Source: Microbacterium sp.
GTDB lineage: Bacteria; Actinomycetota; Actinomycetes; Actinomycetales; Microbacteriaceae
Direction: 5' to 3'
DNA: 64,000 bases
Assembly: GCF_047971895.1 (NCBI RefSeq)
Contig: NZ_JBKEAF010000001.1
Location: 10,495-74,494, forward strand
Part shown: positions 6,906-52,532 of the stretch, piece by piece
Position numbering within the stretch: position 1 is the first letter of the stretch
Layout of the letters: the number at the start of each line of letters is the position of its first letter
Position numbers and translations under genes: made by a program
The notes under the pieces: generated by a model
Seen by the model: the letters and a program-made list of their open reading frames with translations, nothing else
Told to the model about the DNA's origin: nothing
The model's database searches: none

Positions 6906-8132
6906 GTGAGCGACAACACCAGCTGGCCGGCCATGCAGTTCGGCATCTTCTCGGTGAGCGACATCACCCAGGACCCGACCACGGGGCGTACGCCCTCCGA
7001 GGCCGAGCGCATCCAGGCCACCTTGACCATCGCCACGCACGCCGAGGAGGTGGGGCTCGACGTCTTCGCCATCGGCGAGCATCACAATCCGCCGTTCTTC
7101 TCGTCGTCGCCGACCACGACGCTCGCCTACATCGCTGCGCAGACCGAGCGGCTCGTCGTCTCGACGGCCACGACGCTCATCACTACGAACGACCCGGTGA
7201 AGATCGCCGAGGACTTCGCGATGCTGCAGCACATCTCGGGCGGCCGCGCCGACGTCATGCTCGGCCGCGGCAACACCGGACCGGTGTACCCCTGGTTCGG
7301 CAAGGACATCCGCCAGGGTCTTCCACTGGCGATCGAAAACTACGCCCTGCTGCACAAGCTGTGGCGCGAAGACGTCGTGGACTGGGAGGGTACGTTCCGC
7401 ACACCCCTGCAAGGCTTCACCTCCACGCCGCGGCCGCTCGACGACGTGCCCCCGTTCGTGTGGCATGGCTCGATACGCACACCCGAGATCGCCGAGCAGG
7501 CCGCCTACTACGGCGACGGCTTCTTCGCGAACAACATCTTCTGGCCCGCGGAGCACTACCAGCGCCTCATCGAGCTGTACCGCCAGCGCTACGCCCACTA
7601 CGGGCACGGCGCTCCCGAACAGGCGATCGTGGGCCTGGGCGGTCAGGTGTTCTTGGCGGCGAAGTCACAGGACGCCATCGCGCAGTTCCGCCCCTATTTC
7701 GACGCCGCCCCGGTGTACGGACACGGCCCGTCCCTGGAGGACTTCACCGAGATGACGCCACTCACCGTCGGCTCACCGCAGCAGGTCATCGACCGCTACG
7801 CCGGCATGCGCGACCTGTTCGGCGACTACCAGCGCCAGCTGTTCCTCATGGACCACGCCGGCCTACCGCTCAAGACCGTGCTCGAGCAGCTCGACATTCT
7901 CGGGGGCGAGGTCGTGCCCGTGCTGCGCCGCGAGCTCGCGCAGAACCGGCCGACCGCCGTCCCGGACGCTCCGACTCACGCCGCGCTCGTGCGTGCCACG
8001 TACGGCGACGAGGCCCCCCGCCAGCCGCGCCCGAACGCCAACCGCGGAGACAACGTCACGGGCGGCTCGCCATACCAGGACACGCCGGCCCCCGCCGGTG
8101 CGGCCTTCGGCCTCGCACGGAAGGATGCCTGA
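6906..8132 (+). CDS. LLM-class FMN-dependent monooxygenase (CE1758-family-like)
   Basis: 408 aa. The translation MQFGIFSVSDITQDPTTGRTPSE...FAIGEHHNPPF...GGRADVMLGRGN is typical of the luciferase-like family. Confidence 0.85.
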   Translation: MSDNTSWPAMQFGIFSVSDITQDPTTGRTPSEAERIQATLTIATHAEEVGLDVFAIGEHHNPPFFSSSPTTTLAYIAAQTERLVVSTATTLITTNDPVKIAEDFAMLQHISGGRADVMLGRGNTGPVYPWFGKDIRQGLPLAIENYALLHKLWREDVVDWEGTFRTPLQGFTSTPRPLDDVPPFVWHGSIRTPEIAEQAAYYGDGFFANNIFWPAEHYQRLIELYRQRYAHYGHGAPEQAIVGLGGQVFLAAKSQDAIAQFRPYFDAAPVYGHGPSLEDFTEMTPLTVGSPQQVIDRYAGMRDLFGDYQRQLFLMDHAGLPLKTVLEQLDILGGEVVPVLRRELAQNRPTAVPDAPTHAALVRATYGDEAPRQPRPNANRGDNVTGGSPYQDTPAPAGAAFGLARKDA

Positions 8133-8459
8133 GATGACCGCGGCACACCGGTGCTCATCGGCGCCAACGCGGGCACACCGCGGCATTCCCTGGCGATCGA
8201 CTACGCGATCCGGCCGCTGTTCGCCTACGTGCATGCCGATGCCGTGTCCACTGGGGTGTTCGCGGCGTCGGCCGACTGGGGCGGCGCGGGCGATCAGGTC
8301 GCTCCGCTGGCCGACCGCATCGACAAGGGCGCCCGTGAACTTGCCGAGGCGATCGAGCGGCGCGGGGCGAAGGCATCTGTCGACCCGTTCGACCCCTCGT
8401 CGTACCTCGGCGAAGGCCGCTCGTTCGACCACCTGCTGGGCGGTTTCGCCGGAGAGTGA
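8133..8459 (+). pseudogene. Truncated NADPH-dependent FMN reductase (CE1759-like); only the C-terminal part remains
   Basis: The frame reads DDRGTPVLIGANAGTPRHSLAIDYAIRPLFAYVHADAVSTGVFAA immediately after the LLM stop codon. This matches the second half of FMN_red proteins. The N-terminal flavodoxin-like half, which carries the phosphate-binding loop, is absent. Confidence 0.6.
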
Positions 8460-8473
8460 GAGGCCTGCCTGCC

Positions 8474-8653
8474 TCAGCCGCTCTTGCGACGGAACTCGCG
8501 CCTGGTCGTGGGGGCGTGCGTGCCGTGCACGGCGGAGTCCCCGTCGAGATGCGCCTCGCCCTCGCGGTGCTGTGCGTTCTTCTTGTCCAGCGCCTCGCGG
8601 AACTTGCGCTTCATCTCATCCGATGCGCCGCCGGCAGTGTCGTCGGTGCTCAT
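8474..8653 (-). CDS. Small conserved actinobacterial protein (DUF5302-like), 59 aa
   Basis: This ORF is not in the track because it is under 60 aa. My own translation is MSTDDTAGGASDEMKRKFREALDKKNAQHREGEAHLDGDSAVHGTHAPTTRREFRRKSG. The KFREALDKK...RREFRRKSG pattern recalls DUF5302. Confidence 0.55.
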   Translation of the reverse strand: MSTDDTAGGASDEMKRKFREALDKKNAQHREGEAHLDGDSAVHGTHAPTTRREFRRKSG

Positions 8654-8897
8654 GGCCTCATCTTAGAGGGAGAAGCACTGTCCCCTGGTAGGATTGGTGA
8701 GGTTGCCCTCGGGCATCCGTTCAACCACATATGAGCACGGTGTTCACGTGCTCAGCGGAGCAGGCTGGCAGCTAGCTGGTCCCCTGTGGTGGGTTCCCCG
8801 TCGATCGTGCCGGGTGATCTTCTACTGGTGACCAGTGCTGGCGAATCCGCGGGTCCGCTCGCGCGCCGAGATCTGCCTGTTCCTGCTCCTTCGCAAT

Positions 8898-8924
8898 GCT
8901 CGCGCGTCAGACGGACGCGCGAGC
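8898..8924 (+). promoter_or_regulatory. Perfect 11-bp stem-loop in the pnp 5' leader
   Basis: GCTCGCGCGTC-AGACG-GACGCGCGAGC ends 24 nt before the pnp TTG start, just upstream of the AAGGAG RBS. Confidence 0.35.
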
Positions 8925-8947
8925 TAAAACAAAGAAGGAGAGACCTC

Positions 8948-11203
8948 TTGGAAGGTCCTGAAATCACGTTCGCCGAAGCCGTCCTCGACAACGGCCGCTT
9001 CGGCACCCGCACCGTCCGGTTCGAGACCGGACGCCTTGCCCAGCAGGCGCAGGGTGCCGTCGCCGCCTACCTCGACGAGGAGACGATGCTGCTGTCGGCC
9101 ACCAGCGCCGGCAAGCACCCTCGCGAGGGCTTCGACTTCTTCCCGCTGACGGTCGACGTCGAAGAGCGCTCGTACGCGGCCGGCAAGATCCCCGGCTCGT
9201 TCTTCCGCCGCGAGGGCCGCCCCTCGACCGAGGCCATCCTCGTGTGCCGGCTCATCGACCGCCCGCTGCGCCCGTCGTTCGTCGACGGCCTGCGCAACGA
9301 GGTGCAGATCGTCGTCACGGTGCTCTCGATCGCACCGGGTGAGTTCTACGACGCGCTCGCGATCAACGCGGCCTCGCTGTCGACGCAGATCTCCGGTCTG
9401 CCGTTCTCGGGCCCGATCGCCGGCGTTCGCCTGGCGCTCATGCCCGGCCACGGTGAGCACGGCGACCAGTGGATCGCCTTCCCGACGGTCGCGCAGCTCG
9501 AGGAGGCCGTGTTCGACCTCATCGTCGCCGGCCGGGTGCTGCCCGACGGCGACGTCGCGATCATGATGGTCGAGGCCGAGGCCACCGAAGGCAGCTGGAA
9601 CCTCATCAAGGGCGGCGCGACGAAGCCGTCCGAAGAGGTCGTCGCACAGGGTCTCGAAGCGGCCAAGCCCTTCATCAAGGAGCTCGTCGCGGCACAGAAC
9701 GTCGTGGCGAACACCGCGGCGAAGGAGATCAAGGAGTTCCCGGTCTTCCTCCCCTACAGCCCCGAGACCTACGAGTTCGTCGCCGCCCGCGCGTATGACA
9801 AGCTCGCCGCCGTCTACCAGATCGCCGAGAAGGTCGCCCGGCAGGACGCCGACGACGAGGTGAAGGATGCGGTCAGGGCCGAGCTCTCCGCCGCGATCGA
9901 GGCGGGCGAGCTCCCCGCCGCGGCAGCAGCGGAGTTCTCTGCGGCGTACAAGTCGGTGACGAAGAAGATCGTGCGCGGGCGCATCCTCACCGACGGTGTC
10001 CGCATGGACGGGCGCGGGCTCGCCGACATCCGCCCGCTCGACGCGGAGGTCGACGTGATCCCCCGCGTGCACGGATCGGCGATCTTCCAGCGCGGTGAGA
10101 CCCAGATCCTGGGCGTCTCCACGCTGAACATGCTCAAGATGGAGCAGCAGATCGACTCGCTGTCGCCGGTCACCCGCAAGCGGTACATGCACCACTACAA
10201 CTTCCCGCCGTACTCGACCGGTGAGACCGGCCGGGTGGGCAGCCCCAAGCGCCGCGAGATCGGCCACGGCTTCCTTGCCGAGCGCGCTCTCGTGCCGGTG
10301 CTGCCGTCGCGCGAGGAGTTCCCGTACGCGATCCGTCAGGTGTCCGAGGCACTCGGCTCCAACGGCTCGACGTCTATGGGCTCGGTGTGCGCATCGACCC
10401 TGTCGCTGCTGAACGCCGGTGTGCCGCTGCGCGCACCCGTCGCCGGCATCGCGATGGGCCTGGTCTCGGACGAGGTCGACGGTGAGACCCGCTACGCGGC
10501 GCTCACCGACATCCTCGGCGCGGAGGACGCCCTCGGCGACATGGACTTCAAGGTAGCCGGCACCAGCGAGTTCGTCACGGCGATCCAGCTCGATACGAAA
10601 CTCGACGGCATCCCGTCGTCGGTGCTCGCGGGTGCGCTGGAGCAGGCCAAGGACGCGCGACTGAAGATCCTCGATGTCATCGATGCGGCCATCGACAGCC
10701 CCGACGAGATGGCGCCCACCGCGCCGCGCGTCATCAGCGTGCAGATCCCGGTCGACAAGATCGGTGAGCTCATCGGGCCCAAGGGCAAGACGATCAACGC
10801 GATCCAGGATGAGACCGGTGCCGACATCTCCATCGAGGAGGACGGCACGGTGTACATCGGCGCGGTCGACGGTCCGTCTGCCGAGGCGGCTCGCGCGCAG
10901 GTGAACGCGATCGCCAATCCCACCAACCCGGAGGTCGGCGAGCAGTTCCTCGGCACGGTGGTGAAGATCGCCGCGTTCGGCGCGTTCATCTCGCTGCTGC
11001 CCGGCAAGGACGGACTGCTGCACATCAGCGAGATCCGCAAGCTCGCCGGTGGAAAGCGCGTGGAGAACGTCGAGGACGTGCTCAGCGTCGGCCAGAAGCA
11101 GCTCGTGCGCATCACCAAGGTCGACGACCGCGGCAAGCTCTCGCTTGAGCCCGTGCTCGACGAGTCGGCCGACGCCGCGGCAGAGGCTCCGACCGAGGGC
11201 TGA
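8948..11203 (+). CDS. pnp: Polyribonucleotide nucleotidyltransferase (PNPase)
   Basis: The translation ...[21 protein letters not shown]...[30 protein letters not shown]... shows two RNase PH domains plus KH and S1 domains. The start is placed at TTG 8948, which has an AAGGAG RBS. The track start 8786 adds a non-homologous extension. Confidence 0.95.
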
Positions 11204-13200: not shown

Positions 13201-13965
13201 ATGGATGACATGACGACGCGTGTGGCCATCGTGGGGGGTACGGGCAAGCTCGGTGCCATCATCCGCGCGGTCGTCGACGACACGGACGGCTTCGCGACGT
13301 CTGCGGTGCTGACCTCGCGCAGCGCGGTGGACGACATCGACGGCGCCGATCTCGTCATCGATGCGAGCGTCCCGGCGGTGAGCATGGATGTCATCCGCGC
13401 GGCGATCGACCGTGGTCAGAACCTCCTCGTCGGCACTTCCGGGTGGTCGCAGGAGCGCATCGCACTCGTGCGGCCGCTGGTCGAGGCCGCGGGAACGGGG
13501 GCCGTCTTCATCCCGAACTTCTCGCTGGGCTCGGTGCTCGGCACGGCCCTGGCCGCCGCCGCCGCACCATTCTTTCCCTCGGCGGAGATCGTTGAGGCAC
13601 ACCGGGAGACCAAGATCGACTCGCCCAGCGGCACCGCGGTGCGCACCGCTGAGCAGCTCGCCGCCGCGCGGGCGTCCACCGGGCCCGTGGAGGCCCCCTA
13701 CACCGATCAGCGGGCACGCGGGCAGCAGGTGGCGAGCGTGCCCGTGCACTCGCTGCGCCGCCCCGGCGTGATCGCCCGGCAGGAGGTCATCCTCGCCGGC
13801 CCCGGGGAGTCGCTGTCGATCGTGCACGATACGGTGGACCCGGTGCTGGCGTATGCCCCCGGCATCCGTATCGCCCTTTCGGCGGCGCGTGACGCGACGG
13901 GCGTCGTCGTGGGCCTGGACAGCCTGTTCGACATCGGTCTGCGGGGCGGGGCGACCGGCGCATGA
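13201..13965 (+). CDS. dapB: 4-hydroxy-tetrahydrodipicolinate reductase
   Basis: The motifs VAIVGGTGKLG, LLVGTSGW, PNFSLG and EAHRETKIDSPSGTA are DapB signatures. The start is ATG 13201 or 13210. Confidence 0.92.
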   Translation: MDDMTTRVAIVGGTGKLGAIIRAVVDDTDGFATSAVLTSRSAVDDIDGADLVIDASVPAVSMDVIRAAIDRGQNLLVGTSGWSQERIALVRPLVEAAGTGAVFIPNFSLGSVLGTALAAAAAPFFPSAEIVEAHRETKIDSPSGTAVRTAEQLAAARASTGPVEAPYTDQRARGQQVASVPVHSLRRPGVIARQEVILAGPGESLSIVHDTVDPVLAYAPGIRIALSAARDATGVVVGLDSLFDIGLRGGATGA

Positions 13966-14447
13966 ATCCGCGCATCGGCGTGGCCGTCATGGCCGCGGCC
14001 CTGCTGCTGTACATCGTGCTCGTCGCCCAGCGAGCCTACGTGCTGCTGGTCAGCGGCGATGTCGTCGCCGTCATGATGGGAGCGGCGCTCGTCGTGCTCC
14101 CACTGTTGGCCGTGTGGGGGCTCGGTCGCGAGCTGTGGTTCGGGTGGCGCGCCGAGCAGCTCGGCCGACGGATCGAGACGGAGGGCGCCCTGCCTACCGA
14201 AGAGTTCGACGTGCGCCCCAGCGGTCGCCCGTTGCGAGAACACGCCGACGCGCTGTTCCCCGCGTACCGCGCGGATGCCGAGGCGCACCCCGAGGACTGG
14301 CGGGCGTGGTACCGGCTGGCGCTCGTCTACGACGGTGCCGGTGACCGGCGACGCGCACGGGCGGCGGTGCGCACGGCGATCGCCCTGGAGTCGGTGGACC
14401 ACTGTGGCTCGATCGGCGGCAGGTGTCGGGCGGCCAGGCGAGAGTAG
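13962..14447 (+). CDS. Hypothetical membrane protein with TPR-like C-terminal part
   Basis: 161 aa with two N-terminal TM helices. It overlaps the dapB stop by 4 nt. The last ~20 codons look non-native; see the junction finding. Confidence 0.5.
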   Translation: MNPRIGVAVMAAALLLYIVLVAQRAYVLLVSGDVVAVMMGAALVVLPLLAVWGLGRELWFGWRAEQLGRRIETEGALPTEEFDVRPSGRPLREHADALFPAYRADAEAHPEDWRAWYRLALVYDGAGDRRRARAAVRTAIALESVDHCGSIGGRCRAARRE

Positions 14448-14625
14448 CTTCGAGTGTGACCTCGACTCCGGCCAGCACCTGTGATACCGGGCAGCCGGAT
14501 TCGGCCTCCTCGGCGATCAGCTCTTCTGGCGTCGTGACGAAATCAGAGCCCTCGCTGCGCGCCTTCCCGTTGTGGGCGTGGTTGTTTCCTTTACCCGCGG
14601 CCAGCAGAACCTCGCCTTCCACACG
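14437..14625 (-). pseudogene. OsmC-family peroxiredoxin remnant (C-terminal ~45 aa, no start and no stop)
   Basis: The minus-strand translation ...GSDFVTTPEELIAEEAESGCPVSQVLAGVEVTLEATLA resembles the E. coli OsmC C-terminus ...KAKAGCPVSQVLKAEITLDYQLKS. The upstream part is not OsmC-like, and the frame runs on without a stop into the neighbouring gene. Confidence 0.45.
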
Positions 14626-14773
14626 GCATGCTTCACCCCCGACGTACCTGAGACACCGAACCGCCCCACGCGTGCGAAGACGCTGAGGAACGTCGGCGTT
14701 GAACGGCGACGAGACCCGTGGTGTAGGGTGTGTAGACGGATATTTATGATGGGGGCTGGATTTGTCGAGACAA

Positions 14774-17700
14774 ATGAAGATCACGGGGTCGATCGCTGTG
14801 ACCGCACTGGTGCTATCGGGGGTCGGCCTGATGGCTGCTCCTGCCGCTGTGGCTGCGTCAGGAGCGGTGAGCGGGACGGTCTTCTATGATTACGACGGCG
14901 AGGGGGATTTCGACACAGGCAATCTACCCACGACCGGTATCGCGAATGATCGCGTTGCAGCGGGAATACTTGTCACCGCCTACGATGCGGCGGGAAATTC
15001 AGTGGGCTCTGCGACGACCACCAACACGGGGTCAGTCAACTATTCTATCTCGTTGGACTCTGCGGTGAGCGTTGGAGACCCGCTGCGTATCGAGTTCACG
15101 AAGATTCCGACAGGGTACGCAGACACCTTCTTTCCTACCGAAGGTGGAGAAAGCGGAACAAGCGTGCAGTTCGTCTCCGCGGGCGCGGAGAACGTCGATC
15201 TTGGCTTGTTCTCGCCGAACGAGTACAACACGGGGAACACTGCCCTCGCGATGTCCATGATCCTGCCGGGCACCCCGGGCGAATCCCTGCAGGGTAGCGA
15301 GCCCGCTATTTCTGCAATTCCTTGGACGGCACCCATCAATTATCCCGCCTGGTTGGGCCCTGGGTACGAAGACGGGTCTCCAGATCACGCATCACGGAAA
15401 ACCTATGCGACCTTCGATGAGGTTGGGTCGGTAGACACGGGTGTCTTCAATCCTGTCAACGGGTCGTTGTATGCTGCGGCAACGTACAAGCGTGGTGCTG
15501 GGCTAAAGGAAGATGCCTCGGGCCCTAAGTTGGGTGCTATTTATGAAGTGCCGAAGGCAATGGACCCGGCCACAGGTGCCCTGCTTGAGGGAGATTCGGT
15601 CACTGAATGGGTCGACGTCGTCACACTTGGAATAGACATCGGCCAAGGAGACATCCAAACCAACGCTGCTCGTGGGCTTGGAAACGGGACGACGGCTGGT
15701 GCCGACATCAATGCGTTCAAGAACGCAGGCAAGGTTGGTATCGGCGGAGTTGCCGTTGACGCCGCAGGCAAGACGCTCTACTTTGTCAATCTGAAAGACG
15801 AAAAGGTGTACGGGATTGACATAGCAACGAAGTCTCTGCTCAAGACCAGTTGGGCCACACCTGCTGCTTCTCGTGACACCCAGCGTCCCTACGCACTGCT
15901 CATCCGCAACCAGGAACTCTACGTGGGGTATGTAGACACCTCGGATTCTTCAGGTAAGCCATTCACGGCGATGAGCAACGAGCAGAAGGCCTACGTCGCA
16001 AAGGCTCTGCTTGACGACGCTGGCGGTGTCGGCTCGTTCGATGTGGTACTCGAGGCACCGCTGGGCTATGCGAAGGGTGATCCTCTCGACGGCTGGTGGA
16101 CGGGTTTCGATTCTCACCCAGAGACGATTCCTCTGAGGGACACCTATCCTCAGATCGTGCGGTGGAATAGCTGGACAGACGTATGGACCGACGGTACGGA
16201 TGCCGTAGCGTTTGAGCCGTCCAATCCTGCCGCCGGGTATGGGACGACCCCGTGGCCGTACGGGACCCAGACCTATCCTCAGGCCATGCTTACCAGTATT
16301 GCCATTGACAGCGACGGATATCTCACCCTCGGATTAAGGGACCGAACCACAACGCAGGGCGGCGTATACCAGGATCCAGCACTTGAGCATCCAGTCAAGA
16401 AGAACGAAGCTGGCGTGTTCTACAAATACGAGGCGGTGTCCTCGGGCGACATCCTCCTTGCGGCGCCCACGGCCGACGGCAGGTATGAGCTGGAGTCGAA
16501 CGGTGAAGTCGGCACTCGTGCGGCAAGCACTAAGGCATACAACCCGAGCAACGGGACAAACCCTGAGCGCAACCCGCAGGTCCCGACGGTGGGAGAAGGC
16601 CCCGGGGGCCGTGAATTCTACGATGACGCGATGTACCTTGACTTGCGCCCTACTAAGGACAACAGGCACCATGAGATTGGTCTCGGCGGCGTCCTGAGCC
16701 TCCCGGGCGTCAGTGAAGTCGCAGCGAGCGCCTACGACCCGTGGAGCCGTGTGTACGTGCAGGGTGTTGCCTGGTACCGCTCCACCGACGGAACCGCGAT
16801 ACGCGCATACGAGCAGAACGCCGCCGGGTCGAGTTTCGGGTTGAAGCAAGGGGAGATTCTCGGTTTTGGCAAGGGCGGCGCGTTGAATCTGCTCTCTACT
16901 ATGACGCGCGCAGCGCCCATCGAAATTGGAAACCGCACCTGGCTTGACGCCGATCAGGACGGCATTCAGGACGCGGACGAGCCAGCGATCAACGGCGTAA
17001 CGGTTTCGCTGTACGCGGCAGATGCGGCCGGCAAACCCACTGGATCCAAACTTGCCGACACGACGACGGCTACTCTGAACGGTGAGCCGGGCTCGTACAT
17101 TTTCTCGAGTGCCAAGACGGAACGACTTGAACCCAACAAGAACTACGTCGTGGTCTTTACCTACCCCACCACCGCCGATGAGGTCGCGCTCGGAGGCGCT
17201 GGAGCCGACAATCCGGACTACGAAGGCCTCACATGGAATCGTCTGTCGATCACCAAACCTAAACAAGGAGATTCACGGCTCATCGACTCGAACCCGAACC
17301 CCGAGACCGGTCAGGCCCCAGTCTCACTGGGTGATCCGGGGAGAAACGATCACACCATCGACGCCGGATTCATCTTCAGGACACCGAAGGTCACCATCGA
17401 AAAGGGCGACTCCGCTGACGGACAGAGCATCACGCACGATGCGGACACTGCGTCTGAAAGCCAAAACTATGAGCCCGGCGAAACTCGTACCATTGTGCTG
17501 GAAGTGACGAACACCGGCGATGAAGACCTGCGAGAGGTCGTTCTGGTAGATGACACCCTGGCGGGAGATGCCATCGTCAGCCTCGTCTGGACCATGCCCG
17601 ACGGTACGAAGACTGAAGCAGTGAAGAACGCTGATGGGAAGTTTGAGGCGCGCTGGGAAGCAACGTTCGGCAAGGGTGACGCTCGATGGGCTCCAGGAGC

Positions 17701-18508
17701 GGTCATCACCGGAGTAGCGTCGCTGACCATTGATCCTGAGCAACTACCGCACCTCAACAGTGTTTTGGTACGTGCTCGAGGCGCAGGCTCCGGCATTCTT
17801 GTCACTGATGAGGACCCGTACTATGCGGTCACGAGCGGAATCCAGGTCATCAAGTACGATGGCGAGTTGCCCGACCCGAAGGTGAAAGGCAGCGACGGAG
17901 CCTGGGTTGCACCCGGCAAGCCGCTCGTTGATAGTGCGCAGGATGCGAACACTACTGACAAGGCAGTGAAGTATGTTGCCGGTGAACCACAGAAGGTGCG
18001 CTGGGTGGTCACGAACATCGGCAATACGTGGCTGACCAACATGACGCTCGTGGATTCGACTAGCGTCGGTCCGAAGATCGGTGCGGACTGGACCGCTGAT
18101 CTCAGCGCGTTCGGTGGCCCCTCGGCGTACTCCTTCGTCGAGGAGGGGCCGTGGAGCGGACTGCTTCCCCCTGGTGCGTCGTTCTTCGCGCAGGGCTCAC
18201 TGACGATTGAGGCAGGCACGCATACCGACACCGTCACTGTGACCGGGCAGCCGATCGCTCCTGCTGTAGACGAGAAGGGAGTGCCGACAGGTAAGCCGAT
18301 GCTCGACGAGAACGGCAACCCGGTGCTCCTCACCGGCGATGATGGCGAACCGATCACTCTCACTGACGACGATCCGTTCAACGCGATCGTCATGATGCCT
18401 GACACCGGTGGTGGCACCATCGGGTTGGCAGCTGTTGTCATCGGAGCAGTTCTCCTTGCCGGAGGAGGTGTCCTGATGCTGCTTCGCCGCCGCAGGCAGG
18501 AAGCGTAG
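14774..18508 (+). CDS. Large cell-wall-anchored surface protein (SdrD/Cna-B-like and DUF11-like repeats, LPXTG-like MPDTG sorting signal)
   Basis: The signal peptide is [30 protein letters not shown]. There are two SdrD-B-like modules ([42 protein letters not shown]) and Ig-like repeats ([22 protein letters not shown]). The C-terminus is MPDTGG plus a hydrophobic helix plus RRRRQEA. Confidence 0.8.
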   Translation: [1244 protein letters not shown]

Positions 18509-18527
18509 CTCAGGGAGACTGCTGTAG

Positions 18528-18569
18528 CGCGACGAAGCAGGGTGTTCTCGGACGCCCCGCTTCGTCGCG
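18528..18569 (+). terminator. Hairpin after the surface-protein gene
   Basis: An 11-bp perfect stem CGCGACGAAGC / GCTTCGTCGCG with a 20-nt loop, followed by TT. Confidence 0.5.
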
Positions 18570-18598
18570 TTCCGGGCGCCGAGGAGGCAGAGAAAATT

Positions 18599-19906
18599 GT
18601 GAGACGTCTGCGATTGTCGCTGGTCGGGCTTGGAAGCGCCCTGGCCATCTTCGCCACCGGCCTCACAGGTTGCACCGCGGCGAAGGAAGACCTCGTTAGC
18701 GTCCCAGAAGACGTTGCGACGATTTCCGAGGCGGTTGACCGGGTAGCCGAGGGCGGCCTCGTGCTCGTCGGGCCAGGAACATACCCTGAACAAGTGCTGA
18801 TCGAGAAGAACGACGTCACGGTTCGAGGGCGGGATCGCAATACGGTCGTGATCGACGGCGAGGGAATGCGGCCCTATGGTGTGGTCGCCGTCGCTGACGG
18901 GGTCTCTGTGGAGAATCTGACGGTCACACAAGCGACCTTGTACGGGGTTCTCGTCACTGGACTTCATGATGAGAGCGGGCCTATTGCTCGAGGCGCACGT
19001 GGATACACCACTCTCGATGTGGAGGATTTCCCCCCGGTTCAGCGGTTTGCAATCGATCATGTCACGGCGTACAACAACGGGCTGTACGGACTCTATGCGT
19101 TCAACGCGCAGCACGGAACGATCACCGATTCCTACGCCTCGGGATCTGCTGACAGTGGCATATATGTAGGTCAGTGCGAGAAGTGCGACATTCTCGTGGC
19201 GGGGAATATTTCGGAAGCCAACGCGGTGGGGTTCGAGAACGCCAACGCTTCTGACTCTGTCACTGTGGCTGGGAATCGATTCACGATGAATCGAATCGGG
19301 GTCACTTTGATCTCCAGCTACCAGGAGGCACTGGCACCGCAGCGGCGAAACACCGTGATCGGAAACCTGATCTCGAACAACGCGAATCCAGATTCCCCAT
19401 CGCAAGCAGAGGGCATCTACGGAGTAGGTGTGGGGGTGAGCGGCGGTAGGGAGAACCTCTTCAAGTGGAACAGAATTTCTCAGAACCCTGTCGCTGGAGT
19501 GGTTCTCGATAACACAGAAGACTTCGCCCCGCTTGACAACCGCTTCACAGAAAACGTGTTCGACGCCAACGGCGTCAATGCCGCAATCGTTGCCGCGGAC
19601 CGTGCTCCTGCCTCTGGTAACTGCTTCGATACTCCTCCTGCATCGGTCTTGCCCGACGGTGCATTCAACGAATGCGAGGGCGACCCGGGTTTCGGTTCAC
19701 GACAGGAAGCCGTGCGATACGCCGCGCTCCCCGCAATCGAGGTGCCAGATGGCATCAGCTTCCTGCAGGTACCTCCGCCCCCGGCCCAACCGACGATGAA
19801 AGACCCGATGCGAGCGGCTCGGAAACTCCCCGCTCGTGTACCGCACCCCCCGCTCGAACAGTTCACCACCCCAGGTCAGTCGTTCCTTCAGGAGTGGTCA
19901 CGATGA
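18599..19906 (+). CDS. Right-handed parallel beta-helix (NosD/CASH-like) lipoprotein
   Basis: A GTG start follows a GAGGAGG RBS. The lipobox is ATGLTGC. Repeated beta-helix turns are visible: AYNNGLYGLYAFNAQHGTITDSYASGSADSGIYVG...VAGNISEANAVGFENANASDSVTVAGNRFTMNRIGV. Confidence 0.75.
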   Translation: MRRLRLSLVGLGSALAIFATGLTGCTAAKEDLVSVPEDVATISEAVDRVAEGGLVLVGPGTYPEQVLIEKNDVTVRGRDRNTVVIDGEGMRPYGVVAVADGVSVENLTVTQATLYGVLVTGLHDESGPIARGARGYTTLDVEDFPPVQRFAIDHVTAYNNGLYGLYAFNAQHGTITDSYASGSADSGIYVGQCEKCDILVAGNISEANAVGFENANASDSVTVAGNRFTMNRIGVTLISSYQEALAPQRRNTVIGNLISNNANPDSPSQAEGIYGVGVGVSGGRENLFKWNRISQNPVAGVVLDNTEDFAPLDNRFTENVFDANGVNAAIVAADRAPASGNCFDTPPASVLPDGAFNECEGDPGFGSRQEAVRYAALPAIEVPDGISFLQVPPPPAQPTMKDPMRAARKLPARVPHPPLEQFTTPGQSFLQEWSR

Positions 19907-20640
19907 TACGCGCTGTAGCGGTCGGCATGGCCGTTCTCCTGTTCTTGCTCTCCGGTTGTTCCGCTTCACAAGAATCTCGACCCGTGACGACGGAAGAAGC
20001 CCAGATCCTCGCCACCACACGATTCCACAACTTCAATGCTGGTGTGAGATCACTGCGGTTCGACGTCAGATCTCAGGGCAGGCAGCTTGCGTTCAGTGGC
20101 TGGTACGACTGGGTTGACCACGTCGGCTACGGACTGTTGAAGGGGCGGGCACAGGACCAACAAAGCGCGCTAGCGCTCCTGCTCTGGAACGCGACCTCGG
20201 TCGGCTCTCATCCTGTCGCGTCTACTGCGGCCTCTGCTCCGCTCCCGATCCCCGATGTCGAAAGCCTCGACACCGAATGGACGGGAACGCTGTTGGAGCC
20301 TGGAGAGTCAGGACTCGACACGATACTTGGAATGATGCCATTACTTGGACAAGATCGACCAGAGAATGCTCTCTTGGTGCAGCAGAACGGCGCCCGATTC
20401 GAAGGAACAGAAGAACTGAATGGGGCGACTGTTTCGGTCTTTTCTGTGCTTGCTGACAATGCGGAGACACGCGAGAGTGATAGCGCAGACAGTCAATCCA
20501 ACACACGACTATACGTCAATGAGCAAGGGCTCCTTATGCGACTAGGACTTCGCCTTGGAGATGGCGCCGAATGGACATTCATTGAGTTCGGCGAGGCTCC
20601 CGGTGTTGAGCTCGGCGACCCATTCGCGGAGTCGGGATGA
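19903..20640 (+). CDS. Lipoprotein of unknown function (possibly LolA/LppX-like fold)
   Basis: An ATGA overlap links it to the upstream gene. The signal and lipobox are MIRAVAVGMAVLLFLLSGC. I recognise no family motif. Confidence 0.6.
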   Translation: MIRAVAVGMAVLLFLLSGCSASQESRPVTTEEAQILATTRFHNFNAGVRSLRFDVRSQGRQLAFSGWYDWVDHVGYGLLKGRAQDQQSALALLLWNATSVGSHPVASTAASAPLPIPDVESLDTEWTGTLLEPGESGLDTILGMMPLLGQDRPENALLVQQNGARFEGTEELNGATVSVFSVLADNAETRESDSADSQSNTRLYVNEQGLLMRLGLRLGDGAEWTFIEFGEAPGVELGDPFAESG

Positions 20641-21836
20641 ACGAGAAGCCACGGCTGAATGCTTCTGACCCGGTTTCGAATCTGGGGCGACGTCGTTTCC
20701 TCTGGGGCTCCATCGCGGGTGCCGCTGGTACCGCCATCGCTGTCGTCGGTGGAAAACTAGCTGCAGAGTCGCGCGGCGACTCACCCCGCGACGCTGAGGG
20801 TGTTGCCCATGTTCCTGCTCACGGGCGCTACCAAGCCGGAATCGATAGACCCGAGACGCCGCAATCACACACACTCTTCACTGTGATAGATATTGGTGGC
20901 ATCACTGTCGCCGCCGAGGTCGAAAGCGTGATCGGGGCGCTGGGAAGGGCGATAGCGGCCCTCGCCGACCCGTCGCGAACCCCAAACTCGAACATGCCTG
21001 AAGGGCCAAGAGACATCACTGCCACCGTGGGGATAGGACCGAGACTTGTCTCACTCCTCAACCCGAGCCTACCGGGCGCGACCCCGCTGCCAGATTTTGT
21101 AGGAGATGAGGGGATGGTGCCTCTTTCGAACGGGGGCGACCTCGTTCTACAGCTGTGTGCATCAGACGGTGGCGCTCTCGATTCGGCGCAGCGAGAACTG
21201 ATGAGAGTAGTCGGTGGGACTCTGCGCTGGCAGCAGCGCGGCTTCCGCGGAGCGGGAACCGGTTCAATCGTTCGCAACCCACTCGGATTCCATGACGGCA
21301 TCATCGTGCCAACCGGGGAGGCAGAACTCTTCGAGAACGTGTGGATCCGTGACGGTCCAGCTGCGCACGGGACCATCATGGTCGTGCGGAGAATCCAACT
21401 TGACGTCGACGCATTCGAATCGCTTTCCATTCTGGAACAAGAACAAGTCATCGGTCGGGAGAAACTCAGCGGTGCGCCACTCTCGGGCGGGGTGCGTGAA
21501 GATGAAGCAGACCTCCTCGCTAAGACGCCCGACGGCGAATACCTGATACCGGCGAGGTCGCACGTCCGCGCAGCACACCCGTCCTTTACGGGGAGTGGGC
21601 TCATGCTACGACGTGGTTACGCCTACTCGAACTCTGATGCAAGCGGGGTCTCGCAGGGTCTGCTCTTCATCTGCTATCAGAACGATCCATCTGTTTTTAT
21701 CCGAACGCAGCAGAGGCTCGACGAGACGGACGCCCTCGCGGCGTTCTCCCAGGTGACGGCCTCCGGGATGTTCCTCGTTCTTCCAGGCGCCAGTACAGGC
21801 TCCGCTCTTGGCGAGGGCCTTCGCGCGACAGGATGA
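20637..21836 (+). CDS. Tat-exported DyP-type peroxidase (A-type, EfeB-like)
   Basis: An ATGA overlap links it to the upstream gene. The twin-arginine motif is GRRRFLWGS. HGRYQAGI, the GFHDG (GXXDG) motif, SHVRAAHP and GLLFICYQND are also present. Confidence 0.88.
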   Translation: MNEKPRLNASDPVSNLGRRRFLWGSIAGAAGTAIAVVGGKLAAESRGDSPRDAEGVAHVPAHGRYQAGIDRPETPQSHTLFTVIDIGGITVAAEVESVIGALGRAIAALADPSRTPNSNMPEGPRDITATVGIGPRLVSLLNPSLPGATPLPDFVGDEGMVPLSNGGDLVLQLCASDGGALDSAQRELMRVVGGTLRWQQRGFRGAGTGSIVRNPLGFHDGIIVPTGEAELFENVWIRDGPAAHGTIMVVRRIQLDVDAFESLSILEQEQVIGREKLSGAPLSGGVREDEADLLAKTPDGEYLIPARSHVRAAHPSFTGSGLMLRRGYAYSNSDASGVSQGLLFICYQNDPSVFIRTQQRLDETDALAAFSQVTASGMFLVLPGASTGSALGEGLRATG

Positions 21837-21949
21837 AGGGTCGCCCCTGCAGCATCGTGAGCCCCTGCGTGTCGGGGTTGGGTGAGTAGTCCGCCGGCTG
21901 GTCGCGGATCGGCGTCGAGGTCGCCGCTGTGACATCTGCATGACGTATC

Positions 21950-22768
21950 GTGGCACTCGTGACCACCGGCATTCCGACTCCGTACGAAGATCTGTTGCGG
22001 GACGTGCTTGGGCACGGAACACGCAAGGACGATCGCACCGGCACCGGGACCACGAGCGTCTTCGGCCGGCAGATCCGCTTCGATCTGGCCCAGGGCTTTC
22101 CGCTCATCACCACCAAGCGCGTGCATTTCAAGTCGTTGGCAATCGAACTGCTGTGGTTCCTGCGTGGCGAGTCGAACGTCTCGTGGCTGCAGGAGAACGG
22201 CGTCACGATCTGGGACGAATGGGCCGATGCTGCGGGAGAGCTCGGCCCCGTCTACGGCGTGCAGTGGCGCTCGTGGCCGACGCCCGACGGCGAACAGATC
22301 GACCAGATTGCGCAGGTCGTCGCGCAGATCCGCGCCAACCCCGACTCGCGGCGCCTTCTCGTGTCGGCCTGGAACCCCGCGGACATTCCCGACATGGCGC
22401 TGGCGCCCTGCCATGCGATGTTCCAGTTCTATGTCGCCGACGGGCGGCTGTCGTGCCAGCTGTACCAGCGCAGTGCCGACCTGTTCCTCGGCGTGCCCTT
22501 CAACATCGCGTCCTATGCGCTGCTGACCCTCATGATCGCGCAGCAGACCGGCCTGGAGCCGGGTGACTTCGTGTGGACCGGCGGGGATTGCCACATCTAC
22601 GACAATCACCTCGACCAGGTGCGCGCGCAGCTCACCCGCGACCCCTACCCATACCCGACGCTGCGCTTCGCGCGCCGGCCTGCGTCGATCTTCGACTACG
22701 CCTACGACGACTTCCTGATCGAGAACTACCACCACCACCCGACCATCCGCGGCCCGGTCGCGGTCTGA
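21950..22768 (+). CDS. thyA: Thymidylate synthase
   Basis: The motifs [23 protein letters not shown] and [21 protein letters not shown] are ThyA signatures. Confidence 0.95.
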
Positions 22769-48295: not shown

Positions 48296-48517
48296 GGCGC
48301 GCTTTCTGCTAGACTTGCGCGGGCTCCGGGGCGTTCTGCTCCGGAAACGAAAGAGGATCACATCCCACCCGCGCTTGCCGCTCCAGGCTACCGGGTTCCG
48401 CGCTCCGCCCCGATCGAAGGATCCGGGGTCGTTCGGGTGCGAAGCACGCCGCTCACGCGCCGTGCGGGTGGGCCGCGGTTCTCTTCCCGCCGTCACCCGC
48501 ACGAACAGGAGTTCCGC

Positions 48518-49120
48518 ATCAGCGATCCCCGCACCAATGAGCGCATCCGCGTCCCCGAAGTCCGACTCGTCGGACCCAACGGGGAACAGGTCGGCGTCGT
48601 CCGCATCGAGGCGGCGCTGCGTCTGGCGCAGGATGCCGACCTCGACCTGGTCGAGGTGGCCCCCAACTCGAAGCCTCCCGTCGTCAAGATCATGGACTAC
48701 GGGAAGTTCAAGTACGAGGCTGCGCAGAAGGCCAAGGAGGCCCGGCGCAATCAGGCGAACACCATCCTCAAAGAGGTCCGGTTCCGCCTGAAGATCGAGG
48801 CGCACGACTACACGACCAAGCTCAAGCGCGCCGAGGGCTTCCTCAAGGCGGGCGACAAGGTCAAGGCCATGATCCTGTTCCGGGGCCGCGAGCAGTCGCG
48901 TCCTGAACAGGGCGTGCGTCTGCTGAAGAAGTTCGCCGAGGATGTCGCCGAGTTCGGAACCGTCGAGTCGAACCCGACGATCGACGGCCGCAACATGGTG
49001 ATGGTCATCGCCCCGCACAAGAACAAGTCCGAAGTGAAGACGGAGCAGAACGCGCAGCGTGCTGCCAACAAGGAGGCCGCACGCTCTGCGCGTGCCGCCG
49101 GAAGTACAACGAAGGAATAG
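48518..49120 (+). CDS. infC: Translation initiation factor IF-3 (non-ATG start, probably ATC)
   Basis: The translation is [27 protein letters not shown]...[11 protein letters not shown]...[14 protein letters not shown]. An AGGAG RBS lies 6 nt before ATC 48518. No ATG or GTG is available at the homologous N-terminus. Confidence 0.85.
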
Positions 49121-49125
49121 AAGAG

Positions 49126-49320
49126 ATGCCGAAGCAGAAGACCCACTCGGGTGCCAAGAAGCGTTTCAAGGTCACCGGCAGCGGCAAGATCATGAAGCAG
49201 CAGGCGAACCTGCGCCACAACTTCGAGGGCAAGCCGACCAAGCGCACGCGCCGTCTGTCCGCCGACAAGGTGCTGGCTCCCGGCGACGCCAAGGTCGCCA
49301 AGAAGCTCCTCGGTCACTGA
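49126..49320 (+). CDS. rpmI: 50S ribosomal protein L35
   Basis: [28 protein letters not shown]. Confidence 0.95.
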
Positions 49321-49350
49321 GCGCACTCGCAGGAATAGGAACGAAACGAA

Positions 49351-49737
49351 ATGGCTAGAGTCAAGCGGGCGGTCAACGCCCAGAAGAAGCGTCGCGTCAT
49401 CCTCGAGCGCGCCTCGGGTTACCGGGGTCAGCGTTCGCGTCTGTACCGCAAGGCGAAGGAGCAGGTCACCCACTCGCTCGTCTACGCGTACCGCGACCGT
49501 CGTAAGCGCAAGGGCGACTTCCGCCGTCTGTGGATCCAGCGCATCAATGCGGCCAGCCGCCAGAACGGCCTCACGTACAACCGGTTCATCCAGGGGCTCG
49601 GTCTCGCCGGGGTCCAGGTAGACCGTCGTATGCTCGCCGAGCTCGCGGTGAACGAGCCGAAGGCGTTCGCCTCGCTCGTCGAGACCGCCAAGAAGGCGCT
49701 GCCGGCCGACACCAACGCGCCGAAGAGCGCCGCGTAG
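49351..49737 (+). CDS. rplT: 50S ribosomal protein L20
   Basis: [39 protein letters not shown]. Confidence 0.96.
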
Positions 49738-49823
49738 GTCGGCACACGCAAGCAACGGGCGCTCTCCCTCGGGAGGGTGCCCGTTCTCGTGTTGGGGCCC
49801 CGTCGTTCCCATAGACTGGGCGC

Positions 49824-50627
49824 GTGCTGGAGAACCCCCGTTCGCCGCGCGTGCGCGCGGTGGCCAAGCTCGCCAAACGTAGCGCCCGCAAGGAGTCCGG
49901 CCGCTACCTGCTCGAGGGGCCGCAGGCCGTCCGCGAAGCGCTGAAGTTCGCGCCCGACGCGGTCGAGGAGCTGTATGCGACGCCCACGGCCATGGAGAAG
50001 CATCCCGATGTCCGCGACGGTGCGCGCGCCGCCGGAGTCGATGTGCAGTTCGCCGACGAGACCGTCATCGAGGCGATAGCCGACACCGTGACGCCGCAGG
50101 GCGTGGTCGCGGTGGCCCGGCAGACGCCGACGTCGGTGCGCGACGTATTCGCGGCATCCCCCCGACTGATCGTCGTGTGCGAAGAGGTGCGCGATCCCGG
50201 AAATCTGGGCACCATCATCCGGGCCGCCGATGCGGCCGGGGCCGATGCCGTCGTGCTCACCGGCCGCACGGTCGACCCGTTCAATCCGAAGGTCGTGCGG
50301 GCGACGACCGGCTCGCTGTTCCACCTGCCCGTCGCGCTCGGCGGTGCGCTGGCCGACGTGGTCGAGCGGGTGCGCGGCGCAGGGCTGCAACTGCTGGCCG
50401 CCGACATCGACGGTGCCGATCTGCTGGTCGCGCGCGCCGAGGGCCTGCTGGCCGCACCGACGGCGTGGCTGTTCGGGAACGAGGCGCGCGGGCTCGACGA
50501 GGCATCCCTCGCCCTCGCCGACCGCGCTCTGCGCCTGCCGATCTTCGGGCGGGCCGAGTCGCTCAACCTCGCGACGGCTGCCAGCGTGTGCCTGTACGAA
50601 AGCGCGTTTGCCCAGCGTGCGCACTGA
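49824..50627 (+). CDS. TrmH/SpoU-family RNA 2'-O-methyltransferase
   Basis: The motifs VRDPGNLGTIIR, FGNEARGL, IPI.GRAESLN and LA.AA are SpoU signatures. Confidence 0.85.
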   Translation: MLENPRSPRVRAVAKLAKRSARKESGRYLLEGPQAVREALKFAPDAVEELYATPTAMEKHPDVRDGARAAGVDVQFADETVIEAIADTVTPQGVVAVARQTPTSVRDVFAASPRLIVVCEEVRDPGNLGTIIRAADAAGADAVVLTGRTVDPFNPKVVRATTGSLFHLPVALGGALADVVERVRGAGLQLLAADIDGADLLVARAEGLLAAPTAWLFGNEARGLDEASLALADRALRLPIFGRAESLNLATAASVCLYESAFAQRAH

Positions 50628-50651
50628 TCTGCCCAGCGTGCGCACTGACTC
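50610..50651. repeat. 21-bp tandem duplication x2 containing the methyltransferase stop codon
   Basis: GCCCAGCGTGCGCACTGATCT followed by GCCCAGCGTGCGCACTGACTC. Confidence 0.9.
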
Positions 50652-50723
50652 GCCGGTCACAGATCGGTAAAGGTCGGCGCGAAACACACGGTGGCGGGTA
50701 CACGACTGCCTAGGGTGTCATCT

Positions 50724-51518
50724 ATGACGACCTCGGACGGCAGCATCGCCCCGACGACTTCGAACATCTCTGTGCGCCGCGGCGATCCCCTCGTGGTGAT
50801 CGACCACGTGCAGAAGTACTACGGCGACTTCCAGGCACTGGAGGACATCGATCTGACGGTGCACCAGGGTGAGGTGGTGGTGGTGATCGGCCCCTCCGGC
50901 TCCGGCAAGTCGACCCTGTGCCGCACCATCAACCGCCTCGAGACGATCACCAGCGGCACGATCACGATCGACGGGAAGCAGCTTCCCAAAGAGGGCAAGG
51001 CGCTGGCAGCCCTGCGCGCGGACGTCGGCATGGTGTTCCAGTCGTTCAACCTCTTCTCGCACCTCTCGATCCTCGAGAACGTCACGCTCGGGCCGATCAA
51101 GGTCAAGGGCATGAAGAAGGCCGATGCCGAGCGCGAGGCGAAGGTGCTGCTCGACAGGGTCGGGGTCGGCCAGCAGGCAGCGAAGCTGCCCGCCCAGCTG
51201 TCCGGAGGCCAGCAGCAGCGTGTGGCGATCGCACGCGCGTTGGCGATGACCCCCAAGGTGATGCTCTTCGACGAGCCGACCAGCGCCCTGGACCCCGAGA
51301 TGATCAACGAGGTGCTCGACGTCATGATCGAGCTGGCCCAGGAGGGGATGACGATGATCGTCGTCACCCACGAGATGGGATTCGCACGGAAGGCTGCGGA
51401 CCGCGTCGTGTTCATGGCGGACGGCCGCATCGTCGAGGAGGACACCCCGAATGAGTTCTTTACGAATCCGAAGAGCGCGAGGGCGAAGGACTTCCTGTCC
51501 AAGCTCTTGACGAACTGA
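50724..51518 (+). CDS. gluA: Amino-acid (glutamate-type) ABC transporter ATP-binding protein
   Basis: The Walker A motif [24 protein letters not shown] and [10 protein letters not shown] are present. The gene order matches the C. glutamicum gluABCD operon. Confidence 0.85.
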
Positions 51519-51576
51519 TCGGTCGGCCGCCGGCCGTTCACGGCAAGATCCCCCACCCACAGTAGAAGGAGAAGAC

Positions 51577-52461: not shown

Positions 52462-52532
52462 GTGATGCGCCGGGGCGGGCCGCACCGCCCGCCCCGGCAC
52501 ATCCTCTCCCTCATCCCGAAAGGACGCGTGAC

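Follow-up and report, generated by a model that had tools for sequence, protein, structure and literature searches.

Compositionally atypical gene clusters acquired without mobility genes, the so-called genomic islets, are the classical subject of the Lawrence-Ochman amelioration framework. EfeUOB and YwbLMN are iron-uptake systems that include EfeB, an A-type DyP peroxidase exported by the twin-arginine translocation (Tat) pathway, and NosD is the beta-helix component of nitrous-oxide reductase maturation. In Streptomyces, the Tat-dependent peroxidase DtpA (SCO3963 / SLI_4211), also a DyP, is required for the maturation of GlxA (PMC4736821). Here we describe a four-gene segment of about 7.15 kb that shares single components with these systems and lies between thyA and the gene adjoining dapB in a metagenome-assembled genome (MAG) of Microbacterium sp. 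The stretch analyzed, called the window hereafter, comprises 64,000 nucleotides (positions 10,495 to 74,494 of contig NZ_JBKEAF010000001.1, which is 80,870 bp long and has locus tags of the form ACK5IN_...). With a probability of roughly 0.8, we consider that the segment is foreign DNA that was acquired horizontally, that it replaced native genes of this interval and that it likely entered without the help of a mobile-element enzyme.

A block of foreign composition in a conserved backbone

The block at 14700-21840 has a G+C content of 59.7%, against 69.5% in the remaining 56.9 kb of the window, and holds four genes, all on the plus strand, within about 7.1 kb. Values below 63% were found in all fourteen 1-kb segments starting from 14501 to 21001 and in no other 1-kb segment of the 64 kb. 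Against 171 segments of 7.1 kb taken clear of it (0.6946 +/- 0.0118, minimum 0.666) the block lies at z = -8.3. The G+C content at third codon positions (GC3) was 0.67 in the first cargo gene, which encodes a surface protein, 0.66 in a NosD-like gene, 0.59 in a lipoprotein gene and 0.635 in the DyP gene, whereas the flanking genes showed 0.89 (dapB), 0.88 (a gene of 161 amino acids, aa), 0.88 (thyA) and 0.84 (folA), and all the remaining genes of the window fell between 0.78 and 0.94 in a crude gene call. Codons ending in A or T made up 34.5% of the total in the block and 10.3% in 13 host genes (chi2 = 641). Tetranucleotide usage changed as well: the L1 distance was 0.44 within the block versus 0.169 +/- 0.035 outside it, and the correlation of GC-normalised usage with the host profile was 0.70 versus 0.909 +/- 0.037.

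An earlier note on this DNA had described a lower-GC block of about 7 kb, with coordinates that turned out to be good to about 50 bp at both ends, and the checks it proposed on sliding-window G+C, GC3 and tetranucleotides each revealed a sharp step. Its remark on codons was right in part: AAA, ATA and GAA are enriched in the block, whereas TTA, which it had also called common, occurs there only twice. The block and its immediate surroundings contain the following features:

8786-11203: PNPase gene (Pfam)
13216-13965: dapB (Pfam)
13962-14447, plus strand: native gene adjoining dapB, encoding a 161-aa membrane/TPR-like protein (weak TPR match in Pfam only)
14437-14673, minus strand: OsmC pseudogene remnant, native DNA of about 64% G+C (tblastn with the OsmC of L002, and alignment)
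14674-14773: left junction and region upstream of cargo gene 1 (fine-scale G+C)
14774-18508, plus strand: cargo gene 1, predicted 1244-aa wall-anchored surface protein (Pfam, TIGR01167, AlphaFold2 model)
18523-18574, plus strand: GC-rich hairpin between cargo genes 1 and 2 (repeat search and RNA folding)
18599-19906, plus strand: cargo gene 2, predicted NosD-like right-handed beta-helix lipoprotein (PF13229, PF05048)
19903-20640, plus strand: cargo gene 3, predicted 245-aa lipoprotein with a LolA/LprG-type fold (AlphaFold2 and Foldseek)
20637-21836, plus strand: cargo gene 4, predicted Tat-exported A-type DyP haem peroxidase (PF04261 and PF20628, TIGR01413)
21837-21949: right junction, host-like region upstream of thyA (G+C 0.673)
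21950-22768, plus strand: native thyA in the flank (PF00303, E = 1e-123; 74-89% identity to the 80 loci compared below)

The earlier note had also placed the block between the dapB-adjacent gene and thyA in a conserved core, and Pfam confirmed this position, since the backbone gave matches to PNPase, aldo/keto reductase, dapB, thyA, SDR, dapA, RNase J, FtsK, pgsA, recA and miaB. The gene directly after thyA was recognized as folA through its homology to the folA of relatives and not by Pfam. Exact look-ups of the window ThyA and of the 1225-aa version of the surface protein held by NCBI matched no record. No family was found in an Rfam scan of the whole window, a sigma-70 promoter scan gave no sites and a terminator scan gave fewer hits than chance.

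A second and milder dip in G+C (0.635-0.66) was observed at 48500-52500. It was rejected as another island because GC3 there is normal and host-like (0.78-0.90); the dip is due to low G+C at the first and second codon positions, which points to protein composition and not to foreign DNA.

Replacement of native genes between dapB and thyA

The interval was compared with 80 thyA loci, each taken with 10-kb flanks from species-representative genomes of Microbacterium, Agromyces, Leifsonia and other genera. The nearest species representatives were M. jejuense, M. gallinarum and further Microbacterium, with 86-89% identity in ThyA and 76-81% in DapB, and the nearest relatives of dapB, the 161-aa gene and thyA agreed with one another (the L001-L013 group). 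The earlier note had proposed to look for an empty site in this way, taking the presence of the same block, at the same locus and with the same composition, in all related genera as a sign that it is ancestral. None of the 80 loci carried any of the block genes between dapB and thyA and none showed a match to the block DNA; the sole match to a block protein was a DyP of 34% identity in L056, encoded on the far side of dapB at a point some 8 kb upstream of thyA.

The arrangement of the window, with dapB and the 161-aa gene upstream of thyA, is shared by 59 of the 80 loci. About 50 of these 59, from Microbacterium, Agromyces, Leifsonia, Cryobacterium-like MAGs and others, have a conserved minus-strand set in the interval, either complete or in part. 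The set comprises genes for an NAD-epimerase/DUF1731 protein, OsmC, a DUF4395 membrane protein and a thioredoxin-like protein, and in L002 it is arranged as follows:

7380-8306, minus strand: NAD-epimerase/DUF1731 protein
8299-8724, minus strand: OsmC
8841-9452, minus strand: DUF4395 membrane protein
9439-9882, minus strand: thioredoxin-like protein

The epimerase or the DUF4395 gene is missing in some clades. In the window, the interval contains no epimerase, DUF4395 or thioredoxin-like gene, and OsmC is represented by fragments only. Since the flanking genes of the window are closest to a clade that possesses the epimerase, and the outgroup genera possess it too, its absence from the window is most simply a loss. 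The different native set of the relatives, together with the OsmC remnant in the window, indicates a replacement and not a clean insertion: the block replaced native DNA, with further decay on its left side. In this respect the description of the locus as an insertion holds for the presence of a foreign block in the backbone but not for a simple insertion, because the native set was replaced and a gutted OsmC pseudogene was left behind.

The analysis confirmed both pieces of debris that the earlier note had reported at the left junction, namely an OsmC remnant and a changed 3' end in the upstream gene. With the OsmC of L002 as the tblastn query, residues 20-54 were found at 14616-14512 (66% identity) and residues 113-141 at 14523-14437 (72%). 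The remnant bears an in-frame internal deletion of 62 codons that took away the conserved HASCF cysteine region, its N-terminus is degenerate and both start and stop codons are absent; PF02566 matches the intact orthologue, whereas the remnant gave no match. The 161-aa gene, with orthologues of 45-74% identity in the relatives, has an altered 3' end (approximately 14395-14447) that runs into the antisense strand of the OsmC remnant. Its product extends 17 residues past the sequence ALE, versus 3-9 residues past the equivalent A-I-x-L-E in the relatives, and this lengthened C-terminus fits a deletion that took the epimerase gene together with the original stop codon. At about 14700 the G+C content drops from 0.64 (14617-14700) to 0.53 (14701-14773). 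The region 14674-14773 showed no similarity to any relative, and less than about 100 bp of foreign DNA precede cargo gene 1.

At the right junction, blastn similarity to a donor-like contig, L082, stops at 21826, about 10 bp before the end of the DyP stop codon at 21836. A short ATGAAG match seen by eye spans this stop codon, and beyond it the two sequences are unrelated. Similarity to the relatives picks up again at about 21945, just before thyA, and the 113 bp between the block and thyA are close in length to the native spacer between the thioredoxin-like gene and thyA (118 bp in L002).

Unrelated accessory genes of host-like G+C content were also seen within the interval in other Microbacterium loci. 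They encode FtsX/MacB and ABC-2 transporters, BTAD and PucR regulators and a Zn-alcohol dehydrogenase, and they lie in the following stretches:

L011, 2168-7990
L018, 6221-8981
L022, 2712-7881
L025, 2833-7976 (grouped with L022)
L023, 5237-7852
L030, 3945-5204

In Microbacterium, gene content thus seems to have changed repeatedly in the dapB-thyA interval.

Origin of the segment and route of entry

The best matches of the cargo proteins came from other Actinomycetota, mostly Microbacteriaceae, at 35-57% identity; the next-best DyP was that of M. album (57%) and the best surface-protein matches reached 43%. The only close relatives of the cargo were found on two short Logan contigs, L082 and L083, from runs SRR30067253 and SRR30067254. 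Their DNA is 79.7% identical to window positions 19141-21826, and the encoded proteins are 84% (NosD-like), 74% (lipoprotein) and 76% (DyP) identical to those of the window. These contigs have a G+C content of 56% and a GC3 of 0.50-0.56. In a neighbour-joining tree of named DyPs, built without support values, the window protein and that of L082 formed a separate long branch outside the main Microbacterium cluster. The donor would have been a lower-GC actinobacterium (60% or less) related to the L082 organism, and not a member of a distant phylum; the intermediate GC3 of the window genes (0.59-0.67) would agree with incomplete amelioration or with a donor somewhat richer in G+C.

Run SRR30067253 holds two versions of the module, one of the window type (contig L081) and the 80%-identical, 56%-GC type (L082), and the 56%-GC type is present in SRR30067254 too (L083). 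Contigs L081 and L082 both start at the homologue of window position 19141, and L082 and L083 both end about 55 bp past the DyP stop codon. This suggests that the common ends are branch points of the assembly graph that both module versions have in common.

The three features of classical islands all failed to appear. First, no integrase, transposase or phage domain was detected, as Pfam and NCBIfam searches of the block open reading frames (ORFs) returned cargo domains only. Second, ARAGORN found no tRNA or tmRNA gene in the whole 64 kb. Third, the search for flanking direct repeats gave only short two-copy matches (15-22 nt, 73-100% identity), none of which was present at both edges. The earlier note, which saw no integrase, transposase, tRNA target or clean direct repeats, was correct on these points. 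A 20-nt imperfect inverted repeat (14051-14070 / 21910-21929) was taken as a chance occurrence because it lies inside native DNA on both sides. The block DNA had no match among the PLSDB plasmids and, in a plasmid protein search, the module appeared only on a Streptomyces clavuligerus megaplasmid; a conventional plasmid origin is unsupported.

We propose the following course of events. The segment from about 14700 to 21836, with its four genes, would have entered an ancestor of this Microbacterium from a lower-GC actinobacterium and recombined into the thioredoxin/DUF4395 region without a site-specific recombinase. Its entry would have cost the native minus-strand set its promoter-proximal end, with the genes for the thioredoxin-like and DUF4395 proteins. 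The stranded OsmC gene would then have decayed to a pseudogene by internal deletion, and the epimerase gene would have been lost by a deletion that reached into the adjacent 161-aa gene and trimmed its 3' end. The likely route is illegitimate or homology-facilitated illegitimate recombination; illegitimate recombination, which the earlier note had already suggested, is the mechanism to which the absence of mobility signatures points. Its proposal of horizontal acquisition is supported by the composition step and by the absence of the block from the 80 loci.

Several points weigh against this account. The best named homologues of the cargo belong to the host's own family, and the phylogenetic incongruence rests on one neighbour-joining tree together with composition. 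The closest genomes show identities of just 88-89% (ThyA) and about 80% (DapB), an empty site in a near strain was not seen, and the timing of the event is loose. The left edge is fixed only within about 100 bp, and insertion first with decay later is the most economical order of events. Finally, the matches of the cargo proteins to known folds stay at the general-fold level, with template-modelling (TM) scores of 0.3-0.55, and the function of the cargo is a guess.

A related Microbacterium in which the block was already present between dapB and thyA might have passed it on by ordinary homologous recombination, with crossing-over in the conserved flanks, the illegitimate event having occurred earlier and in another lineage. 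We regard this as unlikely. The conserved housekeeping flanks could indeed have served as recombination anchors, the same run yielded the block in at least two strain variants (between L081 and the window there are 2 single-nucleotide polymorphisms in 3334 bp) and the gene content of the interval varies among Microbacterium species. However, the block was found at this locus in none of the 80 species-level relatives, its flanks have host-typical GC3 and consistent nearest relatives, and the debris of native genes lies right at the junction in this very genome.

Horizontal entry by illegitimate recombination is also to be compared with an older event in which an integrase-mediated element (a genomic island, an integrative and conjugative element or a prophage) would have lost its mobility genes and att repeats, a possibility that the earlier note had raised as an old, decayed island. 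Foreign DNA in a conserved backbone, with deletions at one edge, would be expected of such a remnant. Yet no integrase, transposase or phage gene remains in the block, the window lacks tRNA and tmRNA genes and the repeats at the edges are at the level of chance. Moreover, the edges of the foreign DNA coincide with four intact cargo genes (within about 100 bp of the first gene and about 10 bp of the last stop codon), which leaves no room for debris, and the debris that was found is native (OsmC) and not derived from an element. This explanation is not favoured and seems to us distinctly improbable.

A native block of unusual composition, resulting from expression-linked codon usage or local mutation bias and lost from all the sampled relatives, would agree with the finding that Microbacterium and other Microbacteriaceae supply the best named homologues of the cargo. 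This is very improbable on four grounds. The interval in the relatives is not empty but holds a different conserved set, a remnant of which persists in the window; the GC3 deficit of about 25 points is uniform over the four genes; and the closest homologue lies in 56%-GC DNA. In addition, the module has the composition of its host elsewhere: GC3 is about 0.93-0.95 in the ~72%-GC hosts of L084 and L085, and in L084-L088 and L090-L118 the G+C content of the module is within 0.01-0.03 of that of its flanks where several kb of flank are available, with differences of up to about 0.05, usually higher, on short contigs. Only in the window does the module lie 10 GC points below its flanks, and low G+C is therefore not intrinsic to these genes.

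As the source is a MAG, the integrity of the contig was also considered. Two contigs from run SRR30067253, which Logan assembled by a different pipeline, cross the junctions: L089 (1393 bp) is 100% identical to window 13518-14910 and spans the left one, and L081 (3334 bp) is 99.94% identical to window 19141-22474 and spans the right one into thyA. A chimeric contig joining Microbacterium and lower-GC DNA by misassembly or misbinning, although the genome is metagenome-assembled and a second, lower-GC version of the module is present in the same run, can for practical purposes be dismissed, as it needs two precise joins that restore synteny on either side and these independent contigs argue against it.

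The cargo module and known envelope systems

The four cargo genes are intact, and all their products are predicted to be extracytoplasmic: one wall-anchored, two lipid-anchored and one exported by Tat together with its cofactor. Export signals had been claimed for all four proteins, and they are readable in the translations: a Sec signal with an LPXTG-type motif in the first, lipoboxes LTGC and LSGC in the second and third and the twin-arginine motif RRRFL in the fourth.

The ORF of gene 1 opens at 14762, and its likely start is the ATG at 14774. From its N-terminus, the deduced protein shows a Sec signal peptide, an N-terminal stretch, a beta-propeller (residues ~150-720), an SdrD_B domain, DUF7507 repeats and a sorting signal. 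Pfam recognized one SdrD_B domain (PF17210, residues 721-816) and PF24346; another SdrD-B-like motif, FYDYDGEGDFD, was noticed by eye only, with no Pfam match, between residues ~35 and 150. The C-terminus carries MPDTG, a variant in the first position, followed by a transmembrane segment and RRRRQEA, and TIGR01167 (LPXTG anchor) scored 18.4, above its cutoff of 15.9. With its signal peptide, LPXTG-type motif and basic tail, the product has the predicted make-up of a sortase-anchored surface protein. An AlphaFold2 model of the central ~570 residues is a beta-propeller (mean predicted local distance difference test, pLDDT, 72; predicted TM score 0.84), for which the Foldseek matches were generic (BtuG, YVTN, lactonases, LRP6; TM 0.3-0.5), the top one being the corrinoid-binding BtuG. 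A PDB sequence search with the surface protein returned the SdrD B domain only. The propeller was considered as a GlxA-type copper radical oxidase, by analogy with DtpA, and rejected because it had no Pfam match and resembled generic propellers in Foldseek.

Gene 2 likely starts at GTG 18599, behind a GAGGAGG ribosome-binding site, in an ORF that opens at 18542. Its product was matched by the beta-helix families listed above, and a PDB sequence search gave nothing for it or for the lipoprotein of gene 3. The latter had no Pfam or NCBIfam match; its AlphaFold2 model (pLDDT 75) gave LprG, VioE and LolA as top Foldseek matches (E = 1e-6, TM 0.42-0.55). A profile of this lipoprotein family retrieved 607 representative clusters at E <= 1e-3 and 199 at E <= 1e-30. 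In certain members of the family, of 480-700 aa, the domain occurs 2-4 times in tandem. One homologue of 218 aa (P0164, in the cluster of P0159) is annotated on a 48-kb contig of an NCBI MAG labelled Brevundimonas sp., which could reflect mis-binning or a cross-phylum occurrence.

Gene 4, according to its family scores (PF20628, 120.6 bits; PF04261, 26.6 bits; TIGR01413, 170.5 against a cutoff of 100.5), is assigned to the Dyp-type peroxidase superfamily. GFHDG, SHVRAAHP and LRRGYAY are readable in its translation, and we take them to include the GXXDG motif, the proximal His and the distal Arg expected of a catalytic site of this superfamily. The best relatives of solved structure were SCO3963 (4gt2, E = 6.5e-44) and DtpA (5mjh, 2.2e-42).

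Start and stop codons overlap as ATGA at 19903 and 20637, between genes 2 and 3 and genes 3 and 4, which suggests translational coupling. The hairpin at 18523-18574 is very stable (-46.2 kcal/mol, z = -3.4) and has no U-run after it; it probably separates two transcription units, and its possible roles are termination, attenuation and mRNA stability. To judge from this gene layout, the cargo probably forms two expression units, the surface-protein gene alone and a translationally coupled operon of the NosD-like, lipoprotein and DyP genes.

Overall, the module was found in more than 30 actinobacterial loci. The four genes occur together in M. album (L084), in the metagenome contigs L085-L087, on the S. 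clavuligerus megaplasmid pCLA1 (L088) and in most of 29 JGI metagenome loci (L090-L118). The NosD-like, lipoprotein and DyP genes follow one another in this order almost without exception, and the propeller protein gene adjoins them in variable orientation. The surroundings differ, with PRK and acyl-CoA dehydrogenase genes in M. album and rpsJ-rplC in L086, L106 and L108. A LuxR/MalT-type regulator gene lies beside the module in L084-L086, as identified by Pfam, and in L097 and L108, as identified by clustering. The direct contact with the rpsJ-rplC ribosomal protein operon (L086 18125-19095, and the homologous positions in L106 and L108) is seen in one lineage of 60-68% G+C and gives the module another core-genome neighbourhood.

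Given the conserved co-occurrence of the four genes, it can be argued that their products work together. Our best guess is that the haem peroxidase, the two tethered lipoproteins and the wall-anchored propeller protein act on an extracellular or envelope substrate, and that the LolA/LprG-fold lipoprotein, judged by its model, would handle a hydrophobic ligand. The corrinoid-binding BtuG being the top match of the propeller, tetrapyrrole or haem handling is a speculative possibility. Taken singly, the proteins fall into known superfamilies (DyP, beta-helix, Cna-B/SdrD_B, LPXTG). The lipoprotein family and the four genes in combination seem not to have been described in the searchable literature, where, the DtpA paper apart, nothing relevant was found on a DyP and NosD cluster, on DyP context with beta-helix or lipoprotein partners or on run SRR30067253.

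As an acquisition, the block resembles genomic islets in its step in G+C, GC3 and k-mer usage, its syntenic absence from relatives, its intact cargo and its disrupted native neighbours. It differs in being small (7 kb), in having no tRNA target, integrase or direct repeats, in replacing native genes and in its donor, which probably belonged to the same phylum, perhaps the same order, as the host. As a transfer, the event is ordinary, a clean textbook case, and nothing in the present findings would greatly surprise a specialist. It does illustrate that a functional cluster can settle in the most conserved stretch of an actinobacterial chromosome with no mobile-element machinery, and that native stress-related genes (OsmC, thioredoxin-like) are overwritten in the process.

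Each cargo protein can be set against a known counterpart. Like EfeB, the window DyP has a Tat signal and an A-type fold, its top NCBIfam match was the EfeB equivalog TIGR01412, and EfeB/YcdB was among its PDB matches. Unlike EfeB, it scored 213 for TIGR01412, below the cutoff of 428, neither the block nor any of the more than 30 related modules encodes EfeU (FTR1) or EfeO (M75/cupredoxin), and it is accompanied by two lipoproteins, one a beta-helix and one of LolA/LprG fold, and by a propeller surface protein. It resembles DtpA, its closest relative of solved structure by sequence, as an extracytoplasmic Tat substrate. However, no Sco, ECuC or CopCD-type copper-trafficking genes adjoin it, no GlxA-type oxidase was detected and the surface-protein propeller gave no match to a copper-oxidase family. 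The product of gene 2 shares with NosD a right-handed parallel beta-helix and matches to PF05048 and TIGR04247, but its TIGR04247 score is 47.8 against a cutoff of 300, NosF, NosY, NosL and NosZ are absent, and the protein is predicted to be lipoprotein-anchored in a Gram-positive envelope. Gene 3 recalls the LprG, LppX and LolA lipoproteins in its predicted fold, with LprG as the top Foldseek match, and in its N-terminal lipobox; it lacks sequence similarity to them (11-14% identity at the TM scores given above) and represents a separate family. The surface protein has SdrD B-like (Cna-B type) domains and an LPXTG-type anchor, as do the staphylococcal SdrD (MSCRAMM) adhesins, but no Ser-Asp repeats or A-domain; instead, it has the ~570-aa propeller and DUF7507 repeats, and its scores are far under the cutoffs of the MSCRAMM models.

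By gene content, then, the module is predicted to be distinct from EfeUOB, because EfeU and EfeO are lacking, from the Streptomyces sco/DtpA operon, because the copper-trafficking genes are lacking, and from the Nos system. The conserved DyP module is the more useful by-product of this analysis, as it provides a genetic handle on Tat-exported A-type DyPs outside EfeUOB. Tentatively, and at somewhat less than even odds, the cargo could be an undescribed and widely conserved actinobacterial envelope system that moves as a unit, from Microbacteriaceae to a Streptomyces megaplasmid, and that may define a new role of A-type DyPs, possibly the surface capture of a hydrophobic or tetrapyrrole ligand followed by its oxidation, distinct from the roles of these enzymes in EfeUOB and DtpA/GlxA.

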